The notes beneath the pieces were generated by a model. The model had not been told where the DNA came from. It did no database searches and worked only from the letters and a program-made list of their open reading frames with translations. From NCBI GenBank assembly GCA_947625855.1, contig CANQPW010000005.1, forward strand, positions 1 through 52,702: DNA of 52,702 bases, given 5' to 3'. Within the stretch, counting starts at the first letter, position 1. Each line of letters opens with the position of its first letter. The stretch is from an uncultured Clostridia bacterium. Lineage in GTDB: Bacteria; Bacillota; Clostridia; TANB77; CAG-465. Shown here in pieces: positions 781 through 39,493 of this stretch. Both the position numbers and the translations under genes were made by a program.

Positions 781-797
781 AAATTTTGTCAAAGTTG

Positions 798-826: not shown

Positions 827-853
827 ATGAATTGCTATAAAGATATAGCATAT

Positions 854-942: not shown

Positions 943-950
943 CAAATAAA

Positions 951-979: not shown

Positions 980-982
980 GTT

Positions 983-1396
983 TTAAAAATCTGTAAATTT
1001 TATATTATTTTCTCTGAAATATCTTTGATATTCTGCCTTTGTTGCATAACCATTTTCAAAAATAACTGTATAAGAGTTGTCTTCGTAAATCTCAACATGA
1101 AAAGTTTTTTCTGTCCTTGAAAACATATCCCATTTTGAAATTTCTTCAATCACAGCTTTTATCTTTGAAATATCATTTCTATTAAAAGATAACTCAACAT
1201 ACGTTCTTTCTGCATGGATAATAAAGTATACATCATCATACCTTACCATAACACCATTACAAAACTTTGGCTTTGCTATAAGCATAAAACACTGTGCACC
1301 ATTATTTAGCCTTGAAGATAAATAAGATACTACCTCATTATTAGAAAATGTCTGTAAATTAACCATTTTTCCATTCCGCTCAAAGCTGATAGACAT
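983..1396 (-). CDS. Hypothetical protein (137 aa), third gene of the AAA+ operon
   Basis: Long ORF in AT-rich DNA with RBS AAAGGAGGAAAAGACT before the ATG. No family recognised. Confidence 0.7.
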   Translation of the reverse strand: MSISFERNGKMVNLQTFSNNEVVSYLSSRLNNGAQCFMLIAKPKFCNGVMVRYDDVYFIIHAERTYVELSFNRNDISKIKAVIEEISKWDMFSRTEKTFHVEIYEDNSYTVIFENGYATKAEYQRYFRENNIKFTDF

Positions 1397-1428
1397 AGTC
1401 TTTTCCTCCTTTATTTTTACTGTTTAAA

Positions 1429-2322: not shown

Positions 2323-2333
2323 AAGCTTTCCTC

Positions 2334-3428
2334 TTATTTTGAACTCATGCTATCTTTTACATCAACTAAAGCTCTATAAAACTCATTATCTTCTTCTGAT
2401 ATATCAATGTCATTTAAAAGTATTTTTAAATCATCAACATTTAATCCTTTTACTATAACGTTTCTAACAATCTTTTCAAGATCTATACCTTTTTTTCTCA
2501 TTTCATAAGCATATTCTATACCTCTCATTGAAAAAATTGCTTTAATACGATTTTTTCTCTGAGATTCCCGTAACTCCCAAAATACTTCTAAAATTTCTTT
2601 ATCAGGATAAAGGACTGCTTCTAAATCTTTATCATAATCAATTTCTTTTATAACATATCTATCAAGTGTTGCACCATCAAGTTTGTTTCTTCCAACATAT
2701 TCAATACTTCTACCATTTCCCCAAGTATTTGCAGTAGCAACAATTCTAAAATCTTTATGAACTTTTTGCTCACCACAAGGGAAACTATATACACCATTTC
2801 TAATAGCATCATTAACAGAAATAAGTGCAGAAGCTAATGAATTATCAATCTCATCTAAAATAAATAATCCGCCTCTTGTAAAAGCTTCATAAAAATCAGT
2901 AGATTGATACCTTCCAGAAGCATCAATAAATCCGATAAGTTTATACTCATCCTGGGGGCTATTACATCTATATACATCAAGATTTAATGCTTCAGCTACT
3001 TGAGTGAGCATAACATTTTTTCCAGTTCCAGCAGGTCCTGTTAAAAGTACAGGAATATTAAGGCTTACACACTCAAGGACATCTTCAAAATCTTTATGGA
3101 AAACGCCCTCAATCTTTTTAACTTCATTATTTCCAGAAATTATCTCAACATGTCTAAAAGGTATAGTAGCTGTATCAATTTTATCTTCGACTTGCTTTAA
3201 TAATTTAGGCATTAACCTTTCAATACTAAGTTTTATTAAATCATCTAATTTACCATTTTCAAAATATTCTTCATTAATTGTTTTATTAATAAAATTTAAA
3301 GTTAATGGTGACATGGAATCACGTAGTTTTTCAATCGTATCTTCCGAACTAACATATTCCTCCACTATTTTTAATAAATCATCCCTTAACTGCTCAACGA
3401 TATAAGCTTCAAGATTATTGCTAGCCAT
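2334..3428 (-). CDS. AAA+ ATPase, AAA_5 (CobS/MoxR-like) class, Walker A with Asn instead of Ser/Thr
   Basis: Walker A LLTGPAGTGKN, Walker B GGLFILDEID, sensor-1 RIVATANT, then GRNKLDGATLDRY (CobS/MoxR-type). RBS AAAAGGAGGAAAATTTT before the ATG. Confidence 0.85.
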   Translation of the reverse strand: MASNNLEAYIVEQLRDDLLKIVEEYVSSEDTIEKLRDSMSPLTLNFINKTINEEYFENGKLDDLIKLSIERLMPKLLKQVEDKIDTATIPFRHVEIISGNNEVKKIEGVFHKDFEDVLECVSLNIPVLLTGPAGTGKNVMLTQVAEALNLDVYRCNSPQDEYKLIGFIDASGRYQSTDFYEAFTRGGLFILDEIDNSLASALISVNDAIRNGVYSFPCGEQKVHKDFRIVATANTWGNGRSIEYVGRNKLDGATLDRYVIKEIDYDKDLEAVLYPDKEILEVFWELRESQRKNRIKAIFSMRGIEYAYEMRKKGIDLEKIVRNVIVKGLNVDDLKILLNDIDISEEDNEFYRALVDVKDSMSSK

Positions 3429-3491
3429 AAAATTTTCCTCCTTTTTATTTACTATACAATTATGTATGGCATAAAAAATAAATGCATAGCA

Positions 3492-3520
3492 ATTTTATCA
3501 CAATAGTACTTTTTTTTCAA
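3492..3520 (-). promoter_or_regulatory. Promoter of the AAA+ operon
   Basis: On the minus strand: TTGAAA, 17-nt spacer, TAAAAT preceded by TG (TGATAAAAT). Confidence 0.5.
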
Positions 3521-3538
3521 TAGTTTTATGTAAAATAC

Positions 3539-3566
3539 TTGACTTTTTTTTCATTTGTGATATAAT
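3539..3566 (+). promoter_or_regulatory. Promoter of the divergent 491-aa ORF
   Basis: TTGACT (3539-3544), 16-nt spacer, TATAAT (3561-3566) preceded by TG. Confidence 0.55.
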
Positions 3567-3649
3567 GCTTATGCATTATGATTTGAGTAACTACATAATT
3601 TTAGTTACGATTATATTTTAATTATATTTTAAAAAAGGAGGCCGGAAAT

Positions 3650-5125
3650 GTGTACAGCAAATTTTCTCGTATTTTAAGATTAAAGCCAATAGGAATACGA
3701 TTTTGGCCATATGGTGATCAAACACTAAAAATATTTAGTGCTCCAAAATTTTGGTCACAACATAAATATTATACTACTACTGGTTATCATTATGAGGTAA
3801 CCCTTATATCAAACGATAGCATTTCAATTAGCTTAGAAAGTACTTGTAGAAAAGGTTGTATTCATTTTAAACCTGCAACTCTTACATTAGATGATTTTTT
3901 AACACAATTAAAAGAAGCTGTAAAAGAAAATTCAAACTATATAACTCTTGCTATTGCGGTCACTTGTTGTTTTTCCTCTTGTGATACGTGTCTTTTGGAA
4001 AACGATAATTGTAAAAAAATGCGTAATAGTGCTTATGAATATCTTTTATCAATTTATTTTAACTATGAAGATATTATAAAAGCTTTAGATTATTATGAAA
4101 ATTTTGAAGAATACGAAATGGCAAAAAATCCATATAACACTTCTTATTCACAGGGTTCTATGATTTCTTCATATACACCAAAAAAAATTCAAAGAAAAAA
4201 GGAGAAAAGAGCTATGAAAAATCAAACCAACTTTTTGGGAATTCAGTGCGGTATGATTGATGATCCCAATGTAGCAGCAACAATGTTAGGCATATGCTTC
4301 AAGAACGAGGCCGGCAACTGGATTAAATTTGATCCCAACACCAAGCAGCGGACAGATATGTCAAATGTCCAGGTAGGGAACCTTGGGCCTCTGTACCTTA
4401 TTCCTTCAAGTAAAGTGGAAGTTGGAACGCCCATTTACTACGAGAACGAGTACTACTATGTAACGGACGCATCAAATCCCAACAAGCTTACCGTTCTTTC
4501 CGTTAAAGACGGCGTCGAGAAAACAGTTTATCCTGCTAAGAACCTCTTAGGCCTTAACTTCTATGCTAAAGTTGTTGCCTTAATTGATGCTGAGCAGCTG
4601 ATGGGTGGCGACAATGATGATCTGCTGGTTGTTATGGCTCTTAGCGGTGGCCTTAACAATGGTGGCGATAACGCCTTCAACCTTAGCTCCGATGGAAACG
4701 GTCTTAGCAACCTTTTCCTTTTATCCGCACTCAGTAATAATAAGGAAAACGGTCTTGGCGGTATGTTATCCGGCATCTTAGGAGATGGAGATAGTTCTTC
4801 TAATAAACTGCTTCCTTTACTCTTACTTTCTGGTGGCATGAACGGTCAGGGTGGAAACGGCTTTGACATGAATACATTGCTTATGTTAAGTATGCTTAAC
4901 AAGAAGTCTAGCGGATCTGGTAGCAACGAGGCAAGTGACAACAACAATAACTTAGTATATGCCTTAGAAGACATGATGGCAGCCAAGAAAGAACCCGAAA
5001 AATCGGCAGATACCCTTTCTAAGGATGATGTGGCAGCAATTGTCAAGGATACACTCAGATCAGAACTTAAGTCCATTGTAAAAGAAGTTATGGCTGAGAC
5101 CTCTGCTGACAGCACCAAAGAGTAA
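3650..5125 (+). CDS. Hypothetical 491-aa protein, compositional chimera: AT-rich Cys-rich N-terminal part plus GC-rich part with L/S/G/N-rich repeats
   Basis: GTG start 7 nt after AAGGAGG. Uninterrupted frame. An internal in-frame ATG at 4214 is preceded by AAGGAGA. GC rises from about 25% to about 50% after about 4240. A GC-rich hairpin terminator follows the stop. Confidence 0.7.
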   Translation: MYSKFSRILRLKPIGIRFWPYGDQTLKIFSAPKFWSQHKYYTTTGYHYEVTLISNDSISISLESTCRKGCIHFKPATLTLDDFLTQLKEAVKENSNYITLAIAVTCCFSSCDTCLLENDNCKKMRNSAYEYLLSIYFNYEDIIKALDYYENFEEYEMAKNPYNTSYSQGSMISSYTPKKIQRKKEKRAMKNQTNFLGIQCGMIDDPNVAATMLGICFKNEAGNWIKFDPNTKQRTDMSNVQVGNLGPLYLIPSSKVEVGTPIYYENEYYYVTDASNPNKLTVLSVKDGVEKTVYPAKNLLGLNFYAKVVALIDAEQLMGGDNDDLLVVMALSGGLNNGGDNAFNLSSDGNGLSNLFLLSALSNNKENGLGGMLSGILGDGDSSSNKLLPLLLLSGGMNGQGGNGFDMNTLLMLSMLNKKSSGSGSNEASDNNNNLVYALEDMMAAKKEPEKSADTLSKDDVAAIVKDTLRSELKSIVKEVMAETSADSTKE

Positions 5126-5156
5126 TACTAACAATAAACAACAATAAACAAATTTT

Positions 5157-5192
5157 GGCTTGGTGCTTTAATTTAGCACCAAGCCTTTCTTT
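5157..5192 (+). terminator. Rho-independent terminator of the 491-aa ORF
   Basis: GGCTTGGTGCT-TTAATTT-AGCACCAAGCC perfect 11-bp stem followed by TTTCTTT. Confidence 0.75.
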
Positions 5193-5203
5193 GGAGGTAT
5201 AAT

Positions 5204-5410
5204 ATGTCAAGTATATCATTTAGGAAACGGATAAAAATAGATGATACTACGACCTTAAACATCAGTAAAAAGGGTTTTTCGATTAGTAAAAAAGTAGGAA
5301 ATACGACTGTAAATTCAAGAGGAACTGTTACTACAAATCTTGGAAACGGTATAATTTTAAGAGATTCATTAAAACCAAAAACAACTAAAAAAAATTCAAA
5401 AAATAAGTAG
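5204..5410 (+). CDS. DUF4236-like small protein (68 aa)
   Basis: GGAGGTATAAT precedes the ATG. The translation FRKRIKI...LNISKKGFSISKKVGNTTVNSRGTVTTNLGNG matches the recalled DUF4236 pattern (RKSxK...LNxSKxGxSxS...G). Confidence 0.7.
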   Translation: MSSISFRKRIKIDDTTTLNISKKGFSISKKVGNTTVNSRGTVTTNLGNGIILRDSLKPKTTKKNSKNK

Positions 5411-5425
5411 AGCAAAACTCTACTT
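5405..5425. terminator. Bidirectional hairpin terminator between convergent genes
   Basis: AAGTAGAG-CAAAA-CTCTACTT with T-rich flanks on both strands. Confidence 0.55.
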
Positions 5426-5431
5426 ATTTAT

Positions 5432-7000
5432 TTACTCATTAAACCCGAGTATTTTTCCTGATTTAAAATTATAATATCCATCTTCTAATTCTATTAAATC
5501 AAGTTCATCATCTCTACCAACATAATCTTTTATGTTATATTCAAATGAAACATTACCATTTTTTGCATTATATATTGTATATTTTTCATCATTTCTAACA
5601 ATTAAATAATTGTCATCATAGTATTCTTTATACGCATTTTCAATATTTGATATTAAGTTTCCTTTTAAATCATATAGTTTAATAATTTTATCATTTGAAT
5701 TTTCAACTATAATATAACTATCAGATATAACATTATCTCCTCTTTGTAAAGGAATTTTTTTATTTTCATTTATAAAAATATAATCATTTGTAGCACTCTC
5801 ATCTTGAATTGTAACTACCAAAGTTTCACCATAATATGTATAATTAGAAACTCCCTCTAATACCAATTTACCTTTCAAATTATATACATCATATTTTCCT
5901 TTTTCTAAACTTTCAGCAACTATATAATCTAATTTATTATTTCCAGGAGCTACAAAAAAATGATTTTCTATTTTATTTATTAAACCTCTCCTGTTATATA
6001 ATTCCAAATTATCAGCATCAGATATTACAAAATATATATTATTATTTGAATCTAGTAATAATTCAATTTCATTTTCAGAAGTAAATATTTTATTATAATT
6101 TGAATCATAAATAGTATACTTATCTTCTCTTTTTCCATCAACTAATGACATTTGAGTTAAAATCATATATTTACCATATTTATTATTTGCTGATACAGAA
6201 GTACAATTTGAAGTATCAATAGTATCTTTAACACTCATATCCTTGTTATATATTACAACTTCATTTTCTTTAATTTGAATATTATAATTAAAAGTTAGGT
6301 TTTCTACATTTTCAAATAATTCTTCTCCACTTGTTAAATCAAAATATCTATTTTTACCATTTTCATTAACATTAATCACAGTATCATAACTATTATCAAA
6401 TTTATCAAAATAATATATATCATTCTCATTTAGCTCATTACTAGCTGTAAATAATATTTTTCCATCTTCATTTATATAACTGTAATCTTCATTTTCTCCA
6501 ACAAATAATATATCAGATGTCTCATCATTGGATAATATTGAAATATATTCATATTCAACAGGTATAACTTCATTTCCACTATAATCTATAACACCATATT
6601 TGTTCTCCTTTTCAACGCTATAATACTTTCCATTTGCTAATTGTGTTATGCTGTTATATACCCCATAATCTATTATAACCTTCTCATTTTTATTAATTAA
6701 TGCATGTTCTAAATAATTTGGATTATCTGTAAGAGCCTTACTAACGCAAGTAGTATCATAATAAAAATCACTCATATCTGAATATCCAGTATATTTTAAA
6801 ACTTTATTATTTCTTGTTATATATGTAAAATCTCCATTTTCACTTTTCACTAATTTTGCATATCCAACTATAACTTCTTCTTCTTTTTCATCATCATTTT
6901 TACTAAATATATTAGTACATATAAATATTGCTACAATTAATACAACTACTATAATGCAAATTAATGCATATTTTATCAAATTATTCTTGTTGTTTTCCAT
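5432..7000 (-). CDS. Membrane-anchored protein with WG-type (KWG-like) beta-repeats
   Basis: N-terminal TM helix (LIKYALICIIVVVLIVAIFI). Repeats of the type NKYGVIDYSGNEVIPVEYEYI. Confidence 0.75.
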   Translation of the reverse strand: MENNKNNLIKYALICIIVVVLIVAIFICTNIFSKNDDEKEEEVIVGYAKLVKSENGDFTYITRNNKVLKYTGYSDMSDFYYDTTCVSKALTDNPNYLEHALINKNEKVIIDYGVYNSITQLANGKYYSVEKENKYGVIDYSGNEVIPVEYEYISILSNDETSDILFVGENEDYSYINEDGKILFTASNELNENDIYYFDKFDNSYDTVINVNENGKNRYFDLTSGEELFENVENLTFNYNIQIKENEVVIYNKDMSVKDTIDTSNCTSVSANNKYGKYMILTQMSLVDGKREDKYTIYDSNYNKIFTSENEIELLLDSNNNIYFVISDADNLELYNRRGLINKIENHFFVAPGNNKLDYIVAESLEKGKYDVYNLKGKLVLEGVSNYTYYGETLVVTIQDESATNDYIFINENKKIPLQRGDNVISDSYIIVENSNDKIIKLYDLKGNLISNIENAYKEYYDDNYLIVRNDEKYTIYNAKNGNVSFEYNIKDYVGRDDELDLIELEDGYYNFKSGKILGFNE

Positions 7001-7058
7001 AGCAAATCCCTCTTTCTCATAATAATATAGTATATTAAATTGCTATTTTTGTCAATAA

Positions 7059-7086
7059 TAGCAGATGAATTTAATTTCATCTGCTA
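7059..7086 (-). terminator. Hairpin downstream of the DUF4352-like gene
   Basis: TAGCAGATGAA-TTTAAT-TTCATCTGCTA, an 11-bp stem. The T tract on the minus strand is weak. Confidence 0.4.
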
Positions 7087-7091
7087 CAAAC

Positions 7092-7844
7092 TTATATATT
7101 TACTTTTATTTTAGCCATATCTGAATATACAATATAACAATTATTATCATTTTTCATTTTTTGGAAACATAATGTTCCAGTTACACTTTCGCCAACTTCT
7201 AATAATTTGCTGTCAAGAGTTGCCTCTTTATATGTATAATCAATCATAGGATCATAATCTTCTCCATATCTATCTACTAATGAGAAGTCATATTTACTTA
7301 TATATGTAGGAGTATCATCAGTATTTTTTATTGTAATTGTTACCATTACAAGCTCATAATCATTATTATATGCTTGTAAATTTTCACTGCCTTTATATCT
7401 TTCTATTTTATCTATTGTTACTGTACTATAATTATCTTTGATTTCCTTTCCTATACTATATTCTTTTAGTCTTGAAATATCATCATCATCGTCATAATCA
7501 TAGTCGTAATCGTAATCATTATCATAGTCATAATCATCATAATAATCATCATAATCATCAAATATTTCATTTCTTATGCCGTTTGTTATAATATTTTTAC
7601 TTACACTTCCTACAAATGCAAAAACAAAAATTAATACTATTGCTAATATCATACTTAATCCAGATGTTACTATACCAACTATTGGCATAGCTTTATTATT
7701 TTTTCCTCTAGATTTCATTGTAGCAAGTGAAACAATACCAAGAATTATTCCTACTATTGCAGGTACATATGCAAACATACCAATAAATGGTATAAAAGAA
7801 ATTACAATTGCAATAATTCCTAAAACTAAAGATGCTACTTCCAT
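7092..7844 (-). CDS. Membrane protein with a D/Y low-complexity linker and a DUF4352-like extracellular domain
   Basis: Two or three N-terminal TM helices, the linker DDYDDYYDDYDYDNDYDYDYDYDDDDD, and a C-terminal beta-rich domain (ELVMVTITIKN...FSLVDRYGEDYDP...GESVTGTLCF). Confidence 0.75.
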   Translation of the reverse strand: MEVASLVLGIIAIVISFIPFIGMFAYVPAIVGIILGIVSLATMKSRGKNNKAMPIVGIVTSGLSMILAIVLIFVFAFVGSVSKNIITNGIRNEIFDDYDDYYDDYDYDNDYDYDYDYDDDDDISRLKEYSIGKEIKDNYSTVTIDKIERYKGSENLQAYNNDYELVMVTITIKNTDDTPTYISKYDFSLVDRYGEDYDPMIDYTYKEATLDSKLLEVGESVTGTLCFQKMKNDNNCYIVYSDMAKIKVNI

Positions 7845-7856
7845 AATCCTTCCTCC

Positions 7857-8771
7857 TTATTTACTTTTTTTATTTTCTTTTTTAAATAATTTATTTTTTA
7901 AATTTTCAAAAGTATACCATAATGAAGATGCTATAAATACAGATGAATATGTACCTATAATAACACCTAAAATCAATGGTAATGAGAATTCTTTTAATAC
8001 TTGTTGGTCATATATAACAGAAAAAACATATACAATAGCTATTGCAACAACAGTAGTAATTGATGTGCATATTGTTCTACCCATTGTTTGACTTATACTA
8101 GTATTAATTGTACCTTTTAAATCAGCACCACTAGATACAAGTTTTTTATTTTCTCTTATTCTATCATATATAACGATAGTATCATTTATAGAATAACCAA
8201 TAATTGTAAGTATTACAGCTACAAAACTTGAATTTATTGGGAATTTTATAAAGCCATATATTGCTACTATAAATAAAGCATCATGTATAAGTGTTAAAAT
8301 TGCAGATATTGCAGCAGTAAAGCCTAATGTTCTAAATCTTACAAAAATGTATAAAAGTACTATAACTATTGCAAGTGATAAAGCAAGTACTGCTGAATTT
8401 AGCAATTCTTTACCATAAGATGGTTGAACATTTCTTACTGATGGTTCATCCATATTTACATATCTTTCTTTTAAAGCACTAATTATTTTATCAGATGTAT
8501 CTTGATCAATAACTTGTGTTGTAATAGATACAGAATTATCTCCACCACTTGTTTTTTGAACTAATACAGAAGACCCTGTTATCTGAGTTACTAAATCAGT
8601 TATTTCATTATTGTCACATTCTTCTTTAAGCTCTGCTCTAATTGTTGTTCCACCTTTAAAATCAATATCAAAGGTAAAGTCAGTAATTAAGCCATAAACA
8701 ATTCCTGAAATAATTACTATAAGTGAAAAAGCCAAAAATACATATCTATATTTTATAATATCCTTAGTCAT
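7857..8771 (-). CDS. secF: Protein translocase subunit SecF
   Basis: Six-TM SecF pattern, overlaps secD by 8 nt. Conserved FDIDFKGGT and IVIYDRIRE motifs. Confidence 0.93.
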   Translation of the reverse strand: MTKDIIKYRYVFLAFSLIVIISGIVYGLITDFTFDIDFKGGTTIRAELKEECDNNEITDLVTQITGSSVLVQKTSGGDNSVSITTQVIDQDTSDKIISALKERYVNMDEPSVRNVQPSYGKELLNSAVLALSLAIVIVLLYIFVRFRTLGFTAAISAILTLIHDALFIVAIYGFIKFPINSSFVAVILTIIGYSINDTIVIYDRIRENKKLVSSGADLKGTINTSISQTMGRTICTSITTVVAIAIVYVFSVIYDQQVLKEFSLPLILGVIIGTYSSVFIASSLWYTFENLKNKLFKKENKKSK

Positions 8772-10068
8772 TTTCTTTTACCTCCTTTTTTACTCCAAAT
8801 AAGAAGGTATGCTTGTCACATAATGGCATAAATTCTTTTAATAAATATTTTGTAAGTACGACTGCTGTAAGTAAACTTAAAAGTACACCTAAAGCAAGAA
8901 CTATACCAAAGCCTTTTACAAAGCCTATTCCCACAATGTAAAGTAATATTGCTACTGTAAAAGTAGTAACATTTCCATCAACTATTGCTGTCATTGCATT
9001 TTTAAAACTTCTTTCAAAAGCTTTTTTATAATTTACATTTTGCTTCAATTCTTCTTTTAATCTTTCATATATTATTACGTTAGCATCAACTGCCATTCCA
9101 ATTGATAATATAAGACCTGCTATACCTGGTAAAGTTAAACTTATATTTGTATTTGAAATAATTAAAATATTTAAAGCTATATATGCAATTAAAGATATAC
9201 TAGCTACTAATCCAGGTACTCTATATACTACAAGCATAATTAGACAAATCAAAATTAATGCTACAATTCCAGCCTTTATACTTATTTCTAAAGCCTGTTG
9301 ACCTATATATGGGTCTATATATTCTTTGTTTATTACTTCTAAACTAAATGGTAAAGCACCAGAATCAATTAACATAGCATATTGTCTTGCTTGTTCTTCT
9401 TTTTCTTTATTGCTCTCTGATCCCATAGTAATTATTGCAGTATTTGAATTAATTTGTTGACTTACTACTGGTGATGTTATAAGAGTATCATCAAGATATA
9501 TAGATATTGTTTTACCAATTAAATTTGCTGTTGCCTCACTAAATTTTTTTGCTCCTTCATCACTAAATGTTAATTCAACATGTGGATTAGCAAATCCTGT
9601 TGAATCTGTTGCAGAGTTACTATATTTTGCTGAAGCAATATCATCACCTGATAAAAGTACATTTGAATCAGGATCTCTAAATTCAATCTTTGCTGTTTTA
9701 TCTAATCCTTCAACTGCTGTTATAGGATCATTTGTAGTATCACTCTTATCCCTTGGTACTTCAACAGTTATTTGATTTGTCGCTAAATCATATCTAACAA
9801 TATAATCAAATATATTTTTAGAATATAATCTGTTTTCAATTACCTCTACTGATTTTTTCAAATCATATTCAGTTATTTCTTTTCCTTCTTCTGCAATTGC
9901 TTGATATGTTATTGTGACACCACCACTAATATCAAGTCCAGTATTAATTTCTTTTGCACTTTTAATAATATTTCTACCTTTTATAGTTAAACCAAATAAT
10001 GCAAAATATGTAATTAATGCTACAATTGCTACATATATTACTATTTTTATAACATTTTTAAATTTCAC
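8764..10068 (-). CDS. secD: Protein translocase subunit SecD
   Basis: GLDISGG, a periplasmic domain, then a C-terminal six-TM bundle (AVDANVIIYERLKEE). GTG start. Confidence 0.93.
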   Translation of the reverse strand: MKFKNVIKIVIYVAIVALITYFALFGLTIKGRNIIKSAKEINTGLDISGGVTITYQAIAEEGKEITEYDLKKSVEVIENRLYSKNIFDYIVRYDLATNQITVEVPRDKSDTTNDPITAVEGLDKTAKIEFRDPDSNVLLSGDDIASAKYSNSATDSTGFANPHVELTFSDEGAKKFSEATANLIGKTISIYLDDTLITSPVVSQQINSNTAIITMGSESNKEKEEQARQYAMLIDSGALPFSLEVINKEYIDPYIGQQALEISIKAGIVALILICLIMLVVYRVPGLVASISLIAYIALNILIISNTNISLTLPGIAGLILSIGMAVDANVIIYERLKEELKQNVNYKKAFERSFKNAMTAIVDGNVTTFTVAILLYIVGIGFVKGFGIVLALGVLLSLLTAVVLTKYLLKEFMPLCDKHTFLFGVKKEVKEND

Positions 10069-10094
10069 TTAAAATCCCTCCTGTAACATCTGTA

Positions 10095-10123
10095 ATTATA
10101 CTATTTTTATCTAATTTAGTCAA
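10095..10123 (-). promoter_or_regulatory. Promoter of secDF
   Basis: On the minus strand: TTGACT, 17-nt spacer, TATAAT. Confidence 0.55.
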
Positions 10124-10124
10124 G

Positions 10125-10153
10125 AAAAAAATAAAAGCTACAAAATGTAGCTT
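10125..10153 (-). terminator. Rho-independent terminator after the PH-domain gene
   Basis: AAGCTACA-AAA-TGTAGCTT followed on the minus strand by TTATTTTTTT. Confidence 0.65.
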
Positions 10154-10154
10154 A

Positions 10155-10886
10155 TTATTCATTAATATCTTTCAAACTTTCGTTAAATTTCTTTTCATCT
10201 TCTTCTGAAAAATTAACTATTTCGCTAATTTTTTCTTTATCAGACAAATCTTCTTCTTCACTTTTTTCTTCATTTTCTACATTTTGTTCTTCTTTATTTT
10301 CTTCTACATTCTTTTTTGCTATATCATCTTTTTTATAATTTTTTGAATAATCTAAAATTTCATGGATTTTTTCATAACATTCTTGTGGATTTTTTATACT
10401 ATATATTACTAAACCATTATTTCTATTTTCAGCATTAGTATAAATTACTATAATACCATAACCTAGAATTCTATCTGTTATTGTTCTTCTAATTTCAACC
10501 TCTCTTATATTTGAGTATTGTATAGTTTTAGTATGTTGATTTAAAAAAGAATCTTCATAAATCATATAATCATCATAAAAAGTATAACTTAAATATTTAT
10601 ACTGTAATACTTGAAAAGTAATATGTATAATTAATTTTATAGATAATACAATAATTAATGCAATAAATATTATATTTAATAATTGTGATACATTAACAAC
10701 ATCTGTTATACTATTAAAATCTATTACATTATTAAAAATTAATAAAACAATATATAATATTATGGTACCTAAAAGCATAAAAGTTGAATTTTTAATTTTT
10801 CTACCTGTTGGCATTATCATTTCATATATAAAATTAAATTTAGGTTTTATTATATATTTGGGTTCATTTTTTTTAACTTCTTCCAT
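10155..10886 (-). CDS. Membrane protein with a bacterial PH (YdbS/YdbT-like, bPH_2) domain and an E/K-rich tail
   Basis: Two TM helices, then YSNIREVEIRRTITDRILGYGIIVIYT typical of bPH_2. Confidence 0.7.
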   Translation of the reverse strand: MEEVKKNEPKYIIKPKFNFIYEMIMPTGRKIKNSTFMLLGTIILYIVLLIFNNVIDFNSITDVVNVSQLLNIIFIALIIVLSIKLIIHITFQVLQYKYLSYTFYDDYMIYEDSFLNQHTKTIQYSNIREVEIRRTITDRILGYGIIVIYTNAENRNNGLVIYSIKNPQECYEKIHEILDYSKNYKKDDIAKKNVEENKEEQNVENEEKSEEEDLSDKEKISEIVNFSEEDEKKFNESLKDINE

Positions 10887-10896: not shown

Positions 10897-11604
10897 TTAT
10901 TTTACAATAGTTCCTATCTTCTCACCTAAAGTTGCTCTCTTTATTGATTCTTCTTCATTTAAAGCAAATACTATTATAGGTAAGTTATTTTCCATACATA
11001 AAGTTATAGCAGTAGTATCCATTACTCCTAATTTTTCAGATATTGACTGCATATATGTTACTTCATCATATTTTTTTGCATCTTTATACTTTTTTGGATC
11101 TTTATTATACACACCATCAACATTTTTGGCAAGTAAAATTACTTCTGCATCCATTTCTACTGCTCTTAATGCTGCAGCAGAATCAGTAGTAAAATATGGA
11201 TTTCCAGTTCCACAAGCAAATATAACTACTCTTCCTTTTTCTAAATGTCTTATTGCTTTTCTTCTAATATATAGTTCGGCAATTTGTCTCATTTCAATAG
11301 CACTCATAACTCTTGTAGGAATATTTTTAGTTTCTATCATTTCTTGAAGTGCTAATGCATTTAACATTGTAGCAAGCATTCCCATATAATCTGCTGTTGT
11401 TCTTTGCATATATTCTGCTCCATTTTTACCTCTCCAGAAATTTCCTGCACCTATAACAATTCCAATTTCTACTCCATCTTTTGCAAGCTCTACAATTTGA
11501 TTTACAACTTTTTCTAATTTTTCTTTATCTATTCCTTTTCCATCTTTTCCACCTATTGCTTCACCACTTAATTTTACAAGTATTCTTTTATATTTATATT
11601 TCAT
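10897..11604 (-). CDS. pyrH: UMP kinase
   Basis: [11 protein letters not shown]... and the [15 protein letters not shown] motifs. The ATG at 11604 lies 9 nt after AAGAGG; the ORF-track start at 11628 is less likely. Confidence 0.95.
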
Positions 11605-11668
11605 ACGCATTAACCTCTTAGTATTCATTTTATAATATAACCTTTATATTTTCAATAGTTTGCATAAA

Positions 11669-11709
11669 ATAAAAAAATAAAGTATGCTCAAATTACTTAA
11701 ACATACTTT
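11669..11709 (-). terminator. Terminator after tsf
   Basis: AAAGTATG...CATACTTT stem (15-nt loop) followed on the minus strand by a long T run. Confidence 0.45.
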
Positions 11710-11718
11710 ACTTTATAA

Positions 11719-12366
11719 TTAGTTGTTCATTTGTTTCATTACTTCTTCTGCGAAGTTTTCTTCTTTTTTCTCTATTCCTTCGCCTCTTTCAAATCTAACA
11801 AATCTTCTTATTACTATATTTTCACCAATTTTTGCTATTAATTCAACTAAAAGTTCTCCAACAGTTTTATCTGGATCTTTTACAAATGGTTGATCTAACA
11901 AGCAAATTTCTTCGTAAAATTTATTTAATCTTCCTTCAACTATTTTTTCTACGATTGCTTCTGGTTTTCCTTCTTCTAATGCTTGTGCTTTTAATATTTC
12001 TTTTTCTTCTTCAACAACAGATGCTGGAACTTCTTCACGTCTTACATATTTTGGATTTGCTGCAACTATATGCATAGCTACATCTTTAACAAATTTTTTG
12101 AAATCTTCGTTTTTAGATACAAAATCTGTTTCTGAATTTACTTCAACTAAAGCACCATACTTTCCACCATGTATATATGCTTCAACTAATCCTTCAGAAG
12201 CAATTCTGTCAGCTTTTTTAGCTGCTTTTGCAATACCTTTTTTCTTTAAAAGTTCTACTGCTTTTTCCATATCGCCATCAGTTTCTACTAATATTTTTTT
12301 GCAGTCCATTACACCTGCACCTGTCATTTCTCTTAATTCTTTAACTTGTTCAGCTGTTATAGCCAT
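11719..12366 (-). CDS. tsf: Elongation factor Ts (short form)
   Basis: [27 protein letters not shown]-like N-terminus. The ATG at 12366 follows AGGAGG. The ORF-track start at 12402 would overlap rpsB. Confidence 0.95.
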
Positions 12367-12385
12367 TACAAAGCACCTCCTATAA

Positions 12386-13222
12386 TTAATTATTTTCTTC
12401 AACTTGTTCAGTTTTTTCTTTTTTGTTATGAGTAGGTTTCTTGTTATTTTGTCTTGGTTTTCTTTCTATTTTGTCTACTCCTTCTTTTTGTACTAATTCT
12501 TCCATTGTTACAGTTTCTTCATCATCTGCTTCAGTAAGATTTCCTTCTTTAGCTTCTATTACTGCATCAGCTATTTTAGAAGCAATCAAACTTACAGATT
12601 TTACTGCATCATCATTACCAGGAATTACATAATCTACATCATCTGGATTACAGTTAGAATCGATTAAACCAATTGTTGGAATATCAAGTTTTCTAGCTTC
12701 TTTTGTGCAGATATATTCTTTCTTTGAATCTGCTAAAAAGATAAGGGATGGAAGTTTTTCCATATCCTTTATACCACCTAAATTAGTATTTAAGATATCC
12801 ATTTCTTTTCTTAAATTAATTACTTCTTTTTTAGGTAATACATCAAAAGTTCCGTCTTGTTCCATTTTTTCTAAATTAACAAGTCTTGCAATTCTTTTCT
12901 TAATAGTTGCAAAGTTAGTTAAAGTTCCACCTAACCATCTACTATTAATATAATACATTCCACATCTTTCAGCTTCTTGTTTTATAGTTTCTTGAATTTG
13001 TTTCTTAGTTCCTACAAAAAGAACTAATCCACCATTTGCTACAACTCTTTTTGTAAGATTGTAAGCTTCTTGAACTTTTTTTGAAGTTTTTTGCAAGTCT
13101 AAAATATAAATTCCATTTCTTGCAGTAAATATGTATGGAGCCATTCTTGGGTCCCATCTTTTAGTTTGGTGTCCAAAATGTACACCGGCTTCTAGTAATG
13201 ATTTCATTGGTATAATTGCCAT
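12386..13222 (-). CDS. rpsB: 30S ribosomal protein S2 with an E/K-rich C-terminal extension
   Basis: [22 protein letters not shown]... is a canonical S2 N-terminus. Confidence 0.97.
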
Positions 13223-22800: not shown

Positions 22801-23016
22801 GTGGCAAACTCTAACAGTAAAATGTCTAACAAGCAAGCTAAAGCAGCTTTAGACAAATTCAAATATGAAGTAGCTAATGAACTTGGTGTTAACTTAAAAC
22901 AAGGTTATAACGGAGATTTAACTTCTAGAGAAGCTGGTTCTATAGGTGGAGAAATGGTTAAAAAATTAGTAGCACAAGCAGCTAATCAAATGCAATCTCA
23001 ACAATCTAATCAATAA
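22801..23016 (+). CDS. Alpha/beta-type small acid-soluble spore protein
   Basis: KFKYEVANELGVNL...TSREAGSIGGEMVKKLV is the alpha/beta SASP signature. GTG start after GGAGGTGAATTAAA. Confidence 0.93.
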   Translation: MANSNSKMSNKQAKAALDKFKYEVANELGVNLKQGYNGDLTSREAGSIGGEMVKKLVAQAANQMQSQQSNQ

Positions 23017-24276: not shown

Positions 24277-24768
24277 TTATTTTCTTTTGCAATTATACCA
24301 TACATCAATTTCTTCTTTTTGTGGTTCTTCCCACATAGCTTCTAATTTTTTCATTAGCCCTTCATCTAAATAAAAATCAGAGCCACCCTTTCCTGCCATT
24401 ATCATTTCATTTCTTTCAATAATATTTTGCTTCCATGTTTTATCATCAACACATACATAATGTAGTTCACATTCTATGCCATTTTCTTTGTAATATCTAA
24501 CTATTTTTTCTCTTTCTTCTTTTGACCAAAGACCTCTTTCAAAAATTACATTAGCTCCTGCTTTAGCAATTTCTCCAACCTTTTTTGTCAAATATTTATT
24601 TAATCTTTTTGAAAATATATCGTAAAATTCTCCCTGTTCATTATTTATTAAATCATATGTTGCCTCATCTGGTGATATTATGACAGCATTTAACTCTTCT
24701 TTTATTTGATTAGAATAATAACTTTTTCCACTACATATCTTTCCACAAACTAAAATTACTTTTCCCAT
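24277..24768 (-). CDS. P-loop kinase-like ATP-binding protein (AAA_33-like)
   Basis: Walker A VCGKICSGKS near the N-terminus. About 160 aa. The ATG at 24768 follows AAAGGAAG. Confidence 0.75.
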   Translation of the reverse strand: MGKVILVCGKICSGKSYYSNQIKEELNAVIISPDEATYDLINNEQGEFYDIFSKRLNKYLTKKVGEIAKAGANVIFERGLWSKEEREKIVRYYKENGIECELHYVCVDDKTWKQNIIERNEMIMAGKGGSDFYLDEGLMKKLEAMWEEPQKEEIDVWYNCKRK

Positions 24769-24857
24769 ATAGCTTCCTTTCTTCAATAGTCACTATTTAT
24801 CTACAATTATAAATAAAAGGATATCCAATTATTAGATATCCCTTATTACAATATTAT

Positions 24858-26739: not shown

Positions 26740-26958
26740 ATGGCAAATTCTAATAGCAAAATGACAAATAAGCAAGCTAAAGCTGCTTTAAACAAATTCA
26801 AATATGAAGTTGCAAATGAAATTGGTGTTAACCTAAAACAAGGTTATAACGGAGATTTAACTTCAAAACAAGCTGGTTCCATAGGTGGAGAAATGGTTAA
26901 AAAAATGGTTGCACAATCTGCTAATCAAATGCAATCACAACAATCTAATCAATATTAA
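26740..26958 (+). CDS. Alpha/beta-type small acid-soluble spore protein (paralogue)
   Basis: 7 amino-acid differences plus one extra residue relative to 22801..23016. Same GGAGGTGAATT RBS context. Confidence 0.93.
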   Translation: MANSNSKMTNKQAKAALNKFKYEVANEIGVNLKQGYNGDLTSKQAGSIGGEMVKKMVAQSANQMQSQQSNQY

Positions 26959-37046: not shown

Positions 37047-37364
37047 TTATAGTTTAACTTCGATTTCTACGCCTGCTGGCATATCAATTGACATTAAAGC
37101 ATCTACTGTTGCTTGATTTGGAGCTATAACATCAATTACTCTTTTATGAGTTCTCATTTCAAATTGTTCTCTAGAATCTTTATCTTTATGTGGAGAACGT
37201 AATATTGTGATAATCTCTTTTTCTGTTGGAAGTGGAATTGGACCTGATACTTCAGAACCAGTTTTTCTAGCTACTTCAACAATCTTTGATGCTGCTTGCT
37301 CAAGCACTACATGATCATAAGCCTTTAATCTTATTCTCATTTTTTTGTTTTGTTCTTTTGACAT
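37047..37364 (-). CDS. rpsJ: 30S ribosomal protein S10
   Basis: [37 protein letters not shown]. Confidence 0.98.
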
Positions 37365-37796: not shown

Positions 37797-37842
37797 TTGA
37801 ATCTATATTTTTTTTATGATAACATATCACTGAAAATATGTT
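37797..37842 (+). promoter_or_regulatory. Promoter of the ThyX-like/kinase pair with an overlapping palindrome
   Basis: TTGAAT (37797-802), 17-nt spacer, TAACAT (37820-25) preceded by TG. The palindrome AACATAT-N8-ATATGTT (37821-37842) spans the -10 and the TSS. Confidence 0.4.
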
Positions 37843-37856
37843 AGGGAGTGATAGTT

Positions 37857-38513
37857 TTGATAAAAATAGAAAATTTATGTATATCAAATTTTGAAGGCGC
37901 ATTAAGAGGTATGAGAAATCCACTAGAATCTTGGGATAAAAGTGATAGTCATTGGGATGAAGAACACCAAAAATATATAATTGGTGAAAAAGATTTAACT
38001 CTTGCATTAAAACTTACTAAATCTGGTTCTGACCATTCTAAATTTTTAAGACAAATTTTTGTTTCAATGGATATTACCGCTCCAATGTCTTGGTGGTGGG
38101 ATTTTGATACATATAAGATTGCTACTGTAAGAAATAGTACAAGTAGAATGCATAAACTTGGTACAAGGCTTTTAACATTTGATGATTTTTCTATTGATGA
38201 TGAACATGGAAATCCAAACATTACACCTTTTAGAGAATTTGTACTAAACGATCTAAATAGAAGAATTACCGAATATCAAAAATTAAAAGCAGATGGAAAA
38301 ATGGATGAGGCTATGACTTTATGGCGTGAAATTATTTTTGATTCACCACAAAATTATAACTTTAGATCTACTTGGACTGGAAATTATGAAAATATGAGAA
38401 ATATATATAAAGCTAGAAAAAATCATAAGCAAAGAGAATTTAGGGATTTTTGCAAATATATTGAAGAAAATTTCCCATATAGTGAGCTTATCACTACTAC
38501 AAGAGAAGGTTAG
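37857..38513 (+). CDS. Divergent ThyX-fold (flavin-dependent thymidylate synthase-like) protein lacking the RHR motif
   Basis: Aligns by eye to T. maritima ThyX: [47 protein letters not shown] versus LTKSGSDHSKFLRQIFVSMDITAPMSWWWDFDTYKIATVRNSTSRMHKL. A later R..W..N......R block is also present. The TTG at 37857 lies 8 nt after AGGGAG (the GTG at 37848 overlaps the RBS). Confidence 0.7.
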   Translation: MIKIENLCISNFEGALRGMRNPLESWDKSDSHWDEEHQKYIIGEKDLTLALKLTKSGSDHSKFLRQIFVSMDITAPMSWWWDFDTYKIATVRNSTSRMHKLGTRLLTFDDFSIDDEHGNPNITPFREFVLNDLNRRITEYQKLKADGKMDEAMTLWREIIFDSPQNYNFRSTWTGNYENMRNIYKARKNHKQREFRDFCKYIEENFPYSELITTTREG

Positions 38514-38522
38514 GTGATATTA

Positions 38523-39098
38523 ATGGCAAATTCTAAATTAATTGTTGTTGAAGGACCACAAGGAGCTGGTAAAACTACAATTACAGATTTTATTAGACAC
38601 AGTTTAAAATATACTAATTTATATAGACTATGTGGTACTGCTGATAGTACTGAAAGTGGCAAGAAAAAAGCAACTGATATGTATTATGATTTATTAGAAT
38701 ATATAAAAAAGCTAGAAAATCAAAGTATAAATCTTGTTTTTGATAGAACATTTTTTACAGAAGAAATTTATTGTAGACTTAATTTTAAAGAATATAAATT
38801 TACAGATGTATATGAAGATTTATTAAAAAAATTTAATGATTTAGATTTTGATATATATTTTATTACTTTATACTTAGAAAATACTGATTTATACTTAAAG
38901 CGTTTAATGCGTAGTGATAAAGCTATTCCTGAATATGCAAAGTTTACTGCTCAAAGTAGTATAAATCAACAAAATGCATATTTGCAAATGGCTGATGAAA
39001 TTTCAAAAAGTTGTCCTAATATAAAAGTATTTAAAGTATCTAACGATCAAGATGAACAATCTATAAAATCAAAAATAAAAGAAATACTTAATTTTTAA
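38523..39098 (+). CDS. dTMP/dNMP-kinase-like P-loop protein
   Basis: LIVVEGPQGAGKTT P-loop at the N-terminus and a VFDRTFFTEEIY (DRY/F-like) motif. The ATG at 38523 follows AGGTGA, which overlaps the upstream stop, indicating translational coupling. Confidence 0.75.
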   Translation: MANSKLIVVEGPQGAGKTTITDFIRHSLKYTNLYRLCGTADSTESGKKKATDMYYDLLEYIKKLENQSINLVFDRTFFTEEIYCRLNFKEYKFTDVYEDLLKKFNDLDFDIYFITLYLENTDLYLKRLMRSDKAIPEYAKFTAQSSINQQNAYLQMADEISKSCPNIKVFKVSNDQDEQSIKSKIKEILNF

Positions 39099-39170
39099 GA
39101 AAAAAATTAACAAAAATTCTTAAAATATGTCTATAAAAACTAATTAGTTCATTATTTTTAAGTAAATCTC

Positions 39171-39199
39171 TTGATTTTTATTTCGTTTTATGCTAAAAT
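39171..39199 (+). promoter_or_regulatory. rpsT promoter
   Basis: TTGATT, 17-nt spacer, TAAAAT. Confidence 0.5.
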
Positions 39200-39238
39200 A
39201 GGCTAGTAACAAATAATTTAATTTTAAGGAGGTGCACT

Positions 39239-39493
39239 ATGCCAAACATAAAATCAGCAAAAAAGAGAGTAAAAATAATCGAAACTAAAACAGCTCAAAA
39301 TAGAGTAACTAAAAAAGCTTATAAAGAAGCTATAAAAGATTTTGAAGTTGCTGTAAAAGATAATTCTAAAAATAAAACTGAATTATATAATAAGGCTGTA
39401 AGCCTAATAGATAAAGCTTGGTCTAAAGGAGTTCTTGCAAAAAATACAGCTGCAAGAAAAAAAGCAGGACTAGCAAAATTGTTAAATAAGTAA
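39239..39493 (+). CDS. rpsT: 30S ribosomal protein S20
   Basis: MPNIKSAKKRVKIIETKTAQNR is canonical. Confidence 0.97.
   Translation: MPNIKSAKKRVKIIETKTAQNRVTKKAYKEAIKDFEVAVKDNSKNKTELYNKAVSLIDKAWSKGVLAKNTAARKKAGLAKLLNK

Follow-up and report, generated by a model that had tools for sequence, protein, structure and literature searches.

A predicted ThyX-fold protein without the RHR motif, encoded with a divergent nucleotide kinase in a conserved operon of gut Clostridia

Thymidylate synthesis is essential, and to our knowledge ThyA and ThyX are the only recognised classes of thymidylate synthase. What, then, is made by a gene pair that resembles a ThyX enzyme and a thymidylate kinase (Tmk) and carries no ThyX signature? 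We address this question for a locus in a 52,702-nucleotide stretch of DNA from an uncultured Clostridia bacterium (contig CANQPW010000005.1), the whole of which is referred to here as the window. A preliminary description, made from the sequence alone, had offered two readings: a highly diverged thymidylate synthase/kinase pair or a ThyX-derived enzyme with different chemistry feeding a dedicated nucleotide kinase.

Both open reading frames are real. Gene A (37857 to 38513, plus strand) starts with TTG and encodes 218 amino acids, and gene B (38523 to 39098, plus strand) starts with ATG and encodes 191; the motifs quoted for the pair, DFDTYKIATVRNSTSRMH, VVEGPQGAGKTT, and DRTFF, are all found in the window. 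Since all relatives have an ATG at the same place as the TTG at 37857, we take the gene A product to be the 218-residue protein beginning MIKIENL; a GTG at 37848 falls within the spacer of the gene A ribosome-binding site (RBS). That site (AGGGAG, 37843 to 37848, plus strand) corresponds to a GGAGG-like block kept in all relatives, 7 to 9 nt 5' of the start codon. The TAG stop codon of gene A (38511 to 38513) does overlap the gene B RBS (AGGTGA, 38512 to 38517, plus strand), which ends five bases ahead of the gene B ATG, and in relatives the gap between the gene A stop and the gene B start is 0 to 11 nt. The pair lies, as first described, between two ribosomal loci, with rpsJ and the S10 operon on the minus strand and rpsT on the plus strand.

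The reading of A and B as a single operon under a promoter of their own is borne out by related loci, in which the -35, -10, and RBS elements are kept. The -35 hexamer TTGAAT (37798 to 37803, plus strand) aligns as TTGAA(T/A) in the window and in 18 of 18 related loci. Inspection of the sequence places an extended -10 element, TGATAACAT (37817 to 37825, plus strand), 16 nt after the -35, and a TATCAT/TATTAT block is kept at the -10 position in relatives. The promoter call rests on this alignment of 18 related loci; a pattern scan alone does not discriminate in AT-rich DNA (the consensus promoter/terminator scan returned 20 sites versus 14.7 expected, which is uninformative at 27% GC). The palindrome AACATAT-N8-ATATGTT reported over this promoter is present in the window (37821 to 37842), where it spans the -10 and the start region, but it is absent from all 18 related loci in the alignment and is probably not a conserved operator. 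Given this lack of conservation, a regulatory role for the palindrome was dropped. An Rfam scan upstream of A revealed no THF, ZTP, or other riboswitch; the sole match in the spacer was to the S10-Clostridia leader, which lies on the opposite strand. The sequencing runs that hold the window are rabbit and other gut metagenomes, with no RNA-seq runs among them.

The product of gene A had been aligned by eye with ThyX of Thermotoga maritima (Tm), and profile searches revealed a weak but specific relation of this kind. Pfam Thy1 (PF02511) matched residues 49 to 207 of A (HMM positions 38 to 183 of 191) with an E value of 9e-4 and 19.5 bits (cutoff, 24.8), and TIGR02170 scored 14.8 bits (cutoff, 87.9), which leaves A under both curated ThyX cutoffs. 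A Thy1 match at E ≤ 0.01 was obtained for 12 of 50 members of the family to which A belongs, no other family recurred, and one member, P0373, clears the Pfam cutoff (29.3 versus 24.8 bits). When the family was compared with a small ThyX alignment by hhalign, the match was marginal (P = 6.6e-4) and kept the register of the alignment made by eye; the comparison with a single ThyX sequence was insignificant. Sequence searches of PDB chains with A and with the family profile returned nothing meaningful, so among the PDB comparisons the link to ThyX is made via fold comparison only.

That comparison used an AlphaFold2 model of A (pLDDT, 93.6; pTM, 0.85), for which Foldseek found 154 PDB matches at E ≤ 1e-3. 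The best 50 listed were all ThyX, and the ThyX matches had probabilities of 1.0, E values down to 2.8e-8, and TM scores up to 0.69/0.72. The ThyX fold is thus a high-confidence prediction for A, and the proposal that the resemblance exceeds chance holds by the Thy1, hhalign, and Foldseek values alike. Like ThyX proteins such as TM0449 and Helicobacter pylori ThyX, the model has the secondary-structure elements in the same order (TM, 0.58 to 0.72); unlike them, it has an extra beta-hairpin (residues 32 to 41), and A is only 14 to 21% identical to them. A also matches phrog_6721 (E = 9.5e-64; residues 4 to 217; HMM positions 7 to 216 of 218), which has no functional annotation in PHROGs, and PADLOC defence models gave no match for A.

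Residue equivalences between A and Tm ThyX were taken from the profile alignment, and conservation was counted in 50 family members; active-site geometry is read from alignments only, with an uncertain register around residues 90 to 99. The RHR motif (Tm R78-H79-R80) is replaced in A by T85-Y86-K87, as the preliminary description had read it, and these residues are kept in 43, 50, and 41 of the 50 members, respectively. Rather than being a local peculiarity, DTYK is the hallmark of a large, phage-centred family, and it is the rule among the at least 3,099 clusters at 50% identity that this family comprises. S96 (49 of 50 members) aligns with Tm S88, N182 (36 of 50) with N169, R187 (50 of 50) with R174, H190 (50 of 50) with H178, and E194 with E182; equivalents of Tm N85 and N163 are also conserved. 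In contrast, Tm E58 corresponds to R65, which is invariant in the family, R74 to W/K81, R90 to M98, R147 to I160, and R165 to E178, and no conserved Arg for R90 was found in either register around residues 90 to 99. The Ser-x-Arg step that had been singled out is not a conserved feature: the consensus at the position of its Arg, R97, is Thr, and 7 of 50 members have Arg. The profile alignment instead makes the near-invariant S96 the counterpart of Tm S88 and M98 that of Tm R90.

The roles of the Tm residues in uracil, flavin, and phosphate contacts come from the T. maritima ThyX literature, in which R174 is the Arg that reads uracil O4. Read through this alignment, A retains the residues that in Tm ThyX point at the uracil and at the flavin ring (S88, N169, R174, H178, and E182). 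Those that bind the ADP moiety of FAD or the phosphate of the nucleotide (E58, R78-H79-R80, R90, R147, and R165) are replaced, as is R74, another of the arginines that contact the dUMP and FAD phosphates. Structures of ThyX R90A and R174A are among the Foldseek matches, and R90 matters for catalysis. The family also has a new invariant set (R20, K62, R65, Y86, and H99), and in all, ten invariant and about twenty near-invariant polar residues match ThyX active-site elements.

Gene B encodes a Tmk- or dNK-like kinase, as had been proposed. Its P-loop (G11-P-Q-G-A-G-K-T-T; GPQGAGKTT) is invariant among aligned homologues, as are D74-R75-T76 and the residues R127, R130, and K133, which lie in a predicted basic lid of low pLDDT. 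The P-loop and the overall NMP-kinase fold are shared with Tmk (PF02223, TIGR00041), as may be the DR-x motif after strand 3 and the basic lid, and phrog_761, "thymidylate kinase," matches B over its full length (E = 2.7e-12; residues 4 to 189). Unlike Tmk, B has Thr as the third residue of the DR-x motif instead of the aromatic residue in DR[YFH] (DRT, not DRY or DRF), and the curated Tmk models match only its N-terminal 25 to 35 residues: PF02223 scored 19.0 bits (cutoff, 27; residues 12 to 36 only) and TIGR00041 scored 26.4 bits (cutoff, 83.25; residues 4 to 37 only). The deoxynucleoside kinase model PF01712 likewise matched the N terminus only (17.4 bits; cutoff, 27), and some close homologues of B carry a precomputed PF02223 match. 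In Foldseek, the model of B matched deoxyadenosine, thymidylate, and adenylate kinases at TM scores of 0.5 to 0.6; the best match, deoxyadenosine kinase 8puu (E = 9.6e-4; TM, 0.55), was no better than the Tmk matches, and PADLOC gave only weak generic P-loop matches. The suggestion that B is dedicated to A was not supported, as a homologue with 69% identity sits elsewhere, beside a NUDIX gene and without A nearby.

The A-B operon is conserved in the Clostridia lineage under strong purifying selection. In 19 of 20 related metagenome-assembled loci, from rabbit, mouse, deer, sheep, and human guts, rpsJ is followed by A-B; a folC gene (TIGR01499, 353.7 bits) comes next wherever these loci extend far enough, with rpsT after folC in most. 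In the twentieth locus (L022), the place of B is held by an unrelated kinase that Pfam recognises as Thymidylate_kin (47.1 bits). The dN/dS of A (0.08 to 0.18) is like that of the ribosomal protein genes rplC and rplD (0.09 to 0.21). The DTYK family itself is mainly a phage family, and this lineage appears to have fixed one copy as a core gene.

Most family members occur in phages of strict anaerobes, and the known hosts are all strict anaerobes, which also distinguishes the family from ThyX. The literature on ThyX-like proteins, DUF1599, missing thymidylate synthases, and hypermodification yielded no description of it. We counted its genomic context over 102 viral loci, of which 71 have at least one dNTP gene within 8 kb of the A family gene: NrdD/NrdG is present in 43 loci, a nucleotide kinase in 39, dUTPase in 26, MazG in 17, and the 5'-deoxynucleotidase NT5C in 9. 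ThyX genes likewise keep company in phages with ribonucleotide reductase (RNR), dUTPase, and nucleotide kinase genes. Canonical ThyA was found in a single locus and ThyX in none of the 102. Moreover, the complete phage genomes phiCTP1, PMBT24, and ProddE all contain A and NrdD, and neither ThyA nor ThyX was found in any of the three. DNA-hypermodification genes are not among the common neighbours. In several members, the family gene is interrupted by an HNH homing endonuclease, an insertion of the kind that thymidylate synthase, RNR, and polymerase genes typically carry.

Two kinase types of these phage loci occupy the same position as B, directly downstream of, or fused to, the A family gene. 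The commonest gene directly downstream encodes a T4-gp1-type dNMP kinase (PF21448; 10 loci), and the T7-gp1.7-type DUF3310, named "nucleotide kinase" in PHROGs, is a neighbour of the A family gene in 15 loci, and P0373 is a fusion of the two. Neither type is homologous to B, and characterised kinases of both types phosphorylate dTMP (and dGMP). The functional link of the ThyX-like family to nucleotide kinases is upheld: it appears again, independently, with three other unrelated kinase types and in the form of a gene fusion, which makes four unrelated kinase families adjacent or fused to A family genes. Outside phages, one member (P0503/P0489) occurs as a lone gene on the chromosome of Clostridium botulinum and of related Clostridium. 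Since two reviews list C. botulinum with both thyA and thyX (PMC6514825; PMC4913046, Table 1), the family gene would not be its sole thymidylate synthase.

Taken together, these data suggest that the A-B pair probably makes a DNA precursor by an uncharacterised route. Our preferred reading, to which we give roughly even weight, is that A is a diverged enzyme of the ThyX class that adds a one-carbon unit to dUMP, probably as a thymidylate synthase, and that it feeds a divergent Tmk. A would move a one-carbon unit derived from folate, putatively from methylene-tetrahydrofolate, to C5 of dUMP; in the host bacterium it would most likely act as a thymidylate synthase yielding dTMP. A flavin would probably take part, perhaps bound differently than in ThyX, and because the family is restricted to anaerobes, another flavin or another reductant may be used. 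B, translated from the same mRNA, would then phosphorylate the product of A toward the triphosphate. The context leans toward dTMP synthesis since folC lies in the operon, a recognised Tmk replaces B in L022, and phage dNTP modules contain the family without ThyA or ThyX.

Several observations run against this explanation. The ThyX signature and most of the arginines that Tm ThyX needs to bind FAD and dUMP, including R90, are replaced, A lies under both curated cutoffs, and in C. botulinum a family member is reported to occur alongside both thyA and thyX. One viral locus (L053) pairs A with a ThyA-like gene, together with NodU-like carbamoyltransferase and dCMP-deaminase-like genes. The neighbouring dUTPase, MazG, and NT5C genes would serve the needs of a base-replacement pathway as well.

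Of the two readings in the preliminary description, the context leans toward the thymidylate synthase/kinase pair. A change in chemistry is kept alive by the rebuilt active site and the reported coexistence with thyA and thyX, and we consider it unlikely. Here, A would produce another C5-substituted pyrimidine nucleotide, for example 5-hydroxymethyl-dUMP through capture of water by the exocyclic methylene intermediate, or would methylate a different pyrimidine nucleotide. The adjacent kinase would then raise this non-canonical nucleotide to the triphosphate level, and for phages the purpose would be replacement of a DNA base. The loss of R90, R147, and RHR, the new invariant residues, the base-excluding neighbours and broad-specificity T4-gp1-type kinases, and the composition of L053 would all fit such a role. 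The ThyX fold can switch its pyrimidine substrate from dUMP: PolB, a ThyX homologue from the polyoxin antibiotic cluster, methylates UMP at C5. PolB keeps the flavin-dependent ThyX machinery, whereas the A family lacks the ThyX motif and occurs in dNTP-synthesis contexts. A conceptual parallel is provided by the dUMP/dCMP hydroxymethylases of phages with modified bases, such as SPO1 and T4 (gp42): there a thymidylate synthase fold has been diverted to the synthesis of hydroxymethyl pyrimidine nucleotides, which are subsequently phosphorylated by a phage kinase, but that fold is ThyA, and we know of no hydroxymethylase activity for any ThyX-fold protein. Nor do we know of genome-wide thymine replacement in a bacterium, and here A is a slow-evolving core gene, accompanied by folC and a Tmk-like kinase, between ribosomal operons. 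The Pfam-recognised Tmk in L022, the invariance of the uracil-O4 Arg (R174), and the common neighbours without hypermodification genes also argue against changed chemistry, as does the genome paper on PMBT24, which mentions nothing unusual in its DNA.

It is about equally improbable that A has the ThyX fold without being a one-carbon transferase, acting instead as a nucleotide-binding regulator, sponge, or scaffold or in unrelated deoxynucleotide chemistry, with B a housekeeping kinase placed downstream by chance. The loss of canonical cofactor- and phosphate-binding residues, the scores below the curated ThyX models, the 69% identical B homologues without A nearby, and the C. botulinum member reported alongside thyA and thyX are consistent with this idea. 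However, the invariant and near-invariant polar residues at ThyX active-site elements are enzyme-like, adjacency or fusion to four unrelated kinase families would be difficult to account for unless a metabolite is shared, folC lies within the operon, and phage dNTP modules carry A without a canonical thymidylate synthase. Finally, it is very improbable that the pair is the remnant of a decaying prophage or mobile defence island without a housekeeping role: the family is mainly (pro)phage-borne, a Desulfosporosinus prophage carries the closest relative outside the lineage (71% identity), and some relatives have upstream insertions that include a Zeta-toxin-like kinase gene, but position and order are the same across 20 related loci from five kinds of gut, the dN/dS of A is like that of ribosomal protein genes, PADLOC found no match for A, and the window has no phage structural or integrase genes near the pair.

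ThyX is pursued as an antibiotic target for the very reason that its RHR-containing site is regarded as universal in the class. The DTYK family comprises thousands of proteins that are named "hypothetical" by current pipelines and that have the predicted ThyX fold with a different yet equally conserved site, at the position where a thymidylate synthase is expected. If the family makes dTMP, it would fill gaps in the annotation of dTMP synthesis in gut Clostridia and many gut phages and would represent new flavin/folate enzymology; if the product differs, the family would indicate a modified-nucleotide pathway that has gone unrecognised. More tentatively than our preferred reading of the pair, DTYK proteins might, next to ThyA and ThyX, constitute a third class of thymidylate synthase by function, with the ThyX fold and a rebuilt cofactor and nucleotide-phosphate site, confined to strict anaerobes and their phages and serving this lineage as its sole thymidylate synthase; such enzymes would perhaps work with a low-potential reductant or with a flavin that is not FAD. 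A third class would explain the genomes and phage dNTP modules that seemingly have no thymidylate synthase.

ORF A (37857-38513) and ORF B (38523-39098), both on the plus strand, sit between the divergently oriented S10 operon, whose rpsJ gene lies at 37047-37364 on the minus strand, and rpsT (39239-39493, plus strand). The window, which derives from an uncultured Clostridia bacterium of the gut, has a GC content of 26.7%, carries ribosomal operons together with Spo0A-like and small acid-soluble spore protein genes, and is contained in sequencing runs from rabbit and other gut metagenomes. ORF A starts with a TTG at 37857, eight bases 3' of AGGGAG, and relatives have an ATG at this same codon, which bears out the 218-aa product proposed in the preliminary description. 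Its TAG stop codon (38511-38513, plus strand) falls inside AGGTGA, five bases 5' of the ATG of ORF B, which encodes a 191-aa protein. When the 130 nt 5' of A were aligned for the window and 18 related loci, a -35 element [TTGAA(T/A)], a -10 block, and the ribosome-binding site were conserved; the palindrome previously noted at 37821-37842 was found in the window only and was absent from the 18 related loci. An Rfam search detected no riboswitch or other element 5' of A. Part of the rpsJ-A spacer is occupied on the minus strand by an S10-Clostridia ribosomal-protein leader (RF03136; 37499-37580) upstream of rpsJ, a match near threshold (33.5 bits versus a gathering score of 35.1, E = 1.6e-4). 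Elsewhere, the window carries two paralogous small acid-soluble spore protein genes (MANSNSKM...; 22801-23016 and 26740-26958, plus strand), a tRNA gene (854-939; Rfam, 56.8 bits), and a small P-loop kinase-like ORF besides B (24277-24786, minus strand; GKICSGKS).

Taken alone, the sequence link of A to ThyX was marginal. A matched Pfam Thy1 over HMM positions 38-183 (E = 9e-4, 19.5 bits versus a cut-off of 24.8) and TIGR02170 at 14.8 bits against a cut-off of 87.9, and no PDB entry was matched by sequence or family profile. Thy1 was matched at E ≤ 0.01 by 12 of 50 diverse family members, among which no other Pfam family was recurrent, and one family member passed the Thy1 cut-off. In a profile-profile comparison, residues 45-203 of the family aligned with ThyX residues 40-191 in a small ThyX alignment (P = 6.6e-4). 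An AlphaFold2 model of A built from 50 homologues was confident (pLDDT 93.6, pTM 0.85), and a Foldseek search of the PDB with this model gave ThyX as all 50 best matches listed, with 154 matches at E ≤ 1e-3, a probability of 1.0, and TM scores of up to 0.72. In a viral structure library, the nearest matches were "uncharacterized" proteins, and annotated ThyX proteins ranked next. Based on the Thy1 matches, the profile-profile comparison, the model, and the Foldseek matches, the ThyX fold of A is confirmed at the level of predicted structure; the relationship to ThyX first suggested by eye thus held, the Thy1 and profile-profile link being specific.

We mapped the family onto the T. maritima (Tm) ThyX sequence, which is 100% identical to PDB 1kq4. 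In an alignment of 50 family members at 39-88% identity, ten residues were invariant (R20, S25, D30, D46, L49, K62, R65, Y86, R187, and H190), and the family consensus at the former ThyX motif read APxYWWKExDTYKVGTxxNSxSTMHKL. The DTYK family, as we refer to it here, retains Tm residues N85, S88, N163, N169, R174, H178, and E182, whereas E58 is replaced by the invariant R65, R74 by K/W, and R78-H79-R80 by T-Y-K; in A, R90 and Y91 correspond to M98 and H99, and R147 and R165 correspond to I160 and E178. From the ThyX literature, we take the retained residues to be those that point toward the uracil and the isoalloxazine ring, and the replaced ones to be those that bind the nucleotide phosphate and the ADP half of FAD. 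The Ser-x-Arg that had been described as conserved is not, as the Arg of the window's STSRMH is Thr in most family members. Despite its ThyX fold, A falls below the curated cut-offs and lacks both the RHR motif and the phosphate-binding arginines, and thus fails the sequence tests that define ThyX; it should not be classified under that name.

A matched phrog_6721, whose function is unknown in PHROGs, with E = 9.5e-64. An indexed protein search with A returned at least ~8,000 proteins, of which the best 120 carried no useful name, and an exhaustive search of 50%-identity representatives gave 3,099 clusters at E ≤ 1e-3, of which 1,676 reached E ≤ 1e-10. The family lacks a model in Pfam, NCBIfam, and PADLOC, and we found no description of it in the literature. 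A single query matched >560 IMG/VR stretches, and 27 GenBank phage records carry the family; the named hosts in these records (Clostridium, Enterocloster, Clostridioides, Fusobacterium, and Desulfovibrio) are strict anaerobes throughout. Considered with the replacement of the FAD-handle residues, this confinement to anaerobes suggests that the family may use a low-potential reductant, or a flavin that is different or differently bound. In one member, P0373, A is fused to DUF3310. In four others, from the search of representatives (P0265, P0270, P0300, and P0329), a NUMOD4/HNH homing endonuclease (NUMOD4 and HNH_3, plus HTH) lies mid-gene after about residue 130-145 of the A-family reading frame, which may represent either an insertion of the intron or intein type or an intron ORF that was called in error.

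Clustering of the ORFs within 8 kb of A in 102 viral loci, whose A proteins collapse to 78 at 90% identity and to 49 at 70%, identified NrdD as the commonest neighbor (40 loci; NrdD or NrdG, 43), followed by dUTPase (26), DNA polymerases (20 and 17), MazG (17), DUF3310, named "nucleotide kinase" in PHROGs (15), NAD ligase (14), guanylate kinase (13), a T4-gp1-type dNMP kinase (11), and NT5C nucleotidase (9). The gene most commonly found directly 3' of A encoded this dNMP kinase (10 loci). No class I (aerobic) RNR was present among the 28 annotated neighbor clusters, and canonical ThyX was found in none of the 102 loci. The complete genomes of phiCTP1, PMBT24, and ProddE each encode A and NrdD, and neither annotation nor HMM search found ThyA or ThyX in them; PMBT24 further encodes NrdG, dUTPase, and a dNMP kinase, and ProddE encodes NrdG, a MazG-like NTP pyrophosphohydrolase, and a small P-loop kinase. 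The sole locus of the 102 with both A and a ThyA-like gene (L053; IMGVR_UViG_3300045988_142712, 4016-10793) has, in order, a primase, a B-like kinase (DRTFISEIIY), the ThyA-like gene split over two frames, dUTPase, the A homologue, a NodU-like carbamoyltransferase (572 aa), and a dCMP-deaminase-like protein, a run that may be a base-modification cluster.

A genome-collection scan with A yielded 17 close relatives (82-88% identity), all in MAGs of uncultured Clostridia from the guts of rabbits, mice, deer, sheep, and humans. The order rpsJ, A, B, folC, rpsT was found in nearly all related loci and in four metagenome contigs. The folC product (426-433 aa; 11278-12558 in related locus L004, with an equivalent gene in 17 other related loci) passes TIGR01499 (FolC) with 353.7 bits versus 162.65; the gene is absent from this position in the window (39099-39238) and likewise in the mouse gut MAG MGBC120553 (L022). 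Conservation of A equals that of ribosomal proteins L3, L4, L23, and L2 (82-88% identity). The dN/dS of A was 0.08-0.18, compared with 0.09-0.15 in rplC and 0.12-0.21 in rplD; B, at 0.12-0.30, is slightly less constrained. One sub-lineage (L004, 4335-9598; equivalents in L005-L007 and L023) has an insertion between rpsJ and A that encodes a 771-aa PPDK_N/PEP-utilizer protein, an unknown protein of 403 aa, a histidine phosphatase, and a kinase of the Zeta-toxin family. The closest relative outside the lineage (71% identity) lies in a prophage of a Desulfosporosinus MAG (L025), whose replication module (516-9263) comprises Rha, a VapE-type primase, an SNF2 helicase, DUF1599 ("nucleotide modification associated domain 1"), A, a regulator, and a ParB-fused N6/N4 DNA methylase.

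B has an invariant P-loop, DRTFF, and a basic lid, and it matched phrog_761 "thymidylate kinase" over its full length (E = 2.7e-12) and TIGR00041 and PF02223 at its N terminus only. The similarity of its model (pLDDT 83) to a deoxyadenosine kinase, to several thymidylate kinases, and to adenylate kinases was uniformly weak (TM 0.5-0.6). B belongs to the Tmk/dNK superfamily of nucleotide kinases, and any substrate assigned to it is putative. In L022 (5992-7359), the locus closest to the window by its ribosomal proteins (89-98% identical), A is only 81% identical to the window's A, and a 231-aa kinase (Pfam Thymidylate_kin, 47.1 bits versus 27) that has the P-loop alone in common with B takes B's place 3' of A. 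This is a non-orthologous displacement, which argues that B fulfills the role of a Tmk, and one of the two lineages seems to have swapped its A-kinase cassette. Directly 5' of a 69%-identical B homologue in another 26% GC lineage (L156/L157, 3455-5576) are genes for a NUDIX hydrolase and for a 331-aa protein whose HELTH sequence resembles an HExxH motif; A-family genes are absent within 5 kb. An obligate partnership of B with A is therefore excluded, and B looks more like a housekeeping kinase.

A stand-alone chromosomal family gene, P0503/P0489, occurs in C. botulinum and related Clostridium. The P0503 gene (10001-10618 in L148-L150; assemblies GCA_011014515.1 and GCA_011017115.1) is flanked by lrgAB on one side and an ABC transporter/bacA cluster on the other, outside any prophage. 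NCBI names P0503 "MULTISPECIES: hypothetical protein [Clostridium]" and the near-identical P0489 "hypothetical protein [Clostridium botulinum]"; their UniRef name is "Thymidylate synthase."

Taken together, the simplest account, to which we give about an even chance, views the DTYK family as a divergent branch within the flavin-dependent thymidylate synthases. A would then produce dTMP from dUMP and a folate one-carbon unit, and B would phosphorylate the product of A. This account draws on the ThyX fold with its retained uracil- and flavin-facing residues, on folC in the operon of related loci, on the location of A in phage dNTP modules otherwise without a thymidylate synthase, and on selection equal in strength to that on ribosomal proteins. 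It also draws on the repeated adjacency or fusion of the family to four unrelated kinase families, whose characterized members use dTMP as a substrate. Evidence against a plain thymidylate synthase comes from the thoroughly rebuilt active site, from the family gene in C. botulinum, for which reviews list both thyA and thyX (PMC6514825; PMC4913046), from the ThyA-like, NodU-like, and dCMP-deaminase-like genes that accompany A in L053, and from the dUTPase, MazG, and NT5C neighbors, which equally fit a base-replacement pathway. Weighing the supporting against the opposing evidence, we consider it unlikely that A makes a different C5 product, and a non-transferase role for A appears similarly improbable. 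Since P0503 is encoded by a stand-alone chromosomal gene in a cultured Clostridium, it provides a genetically tractable test case for the family.
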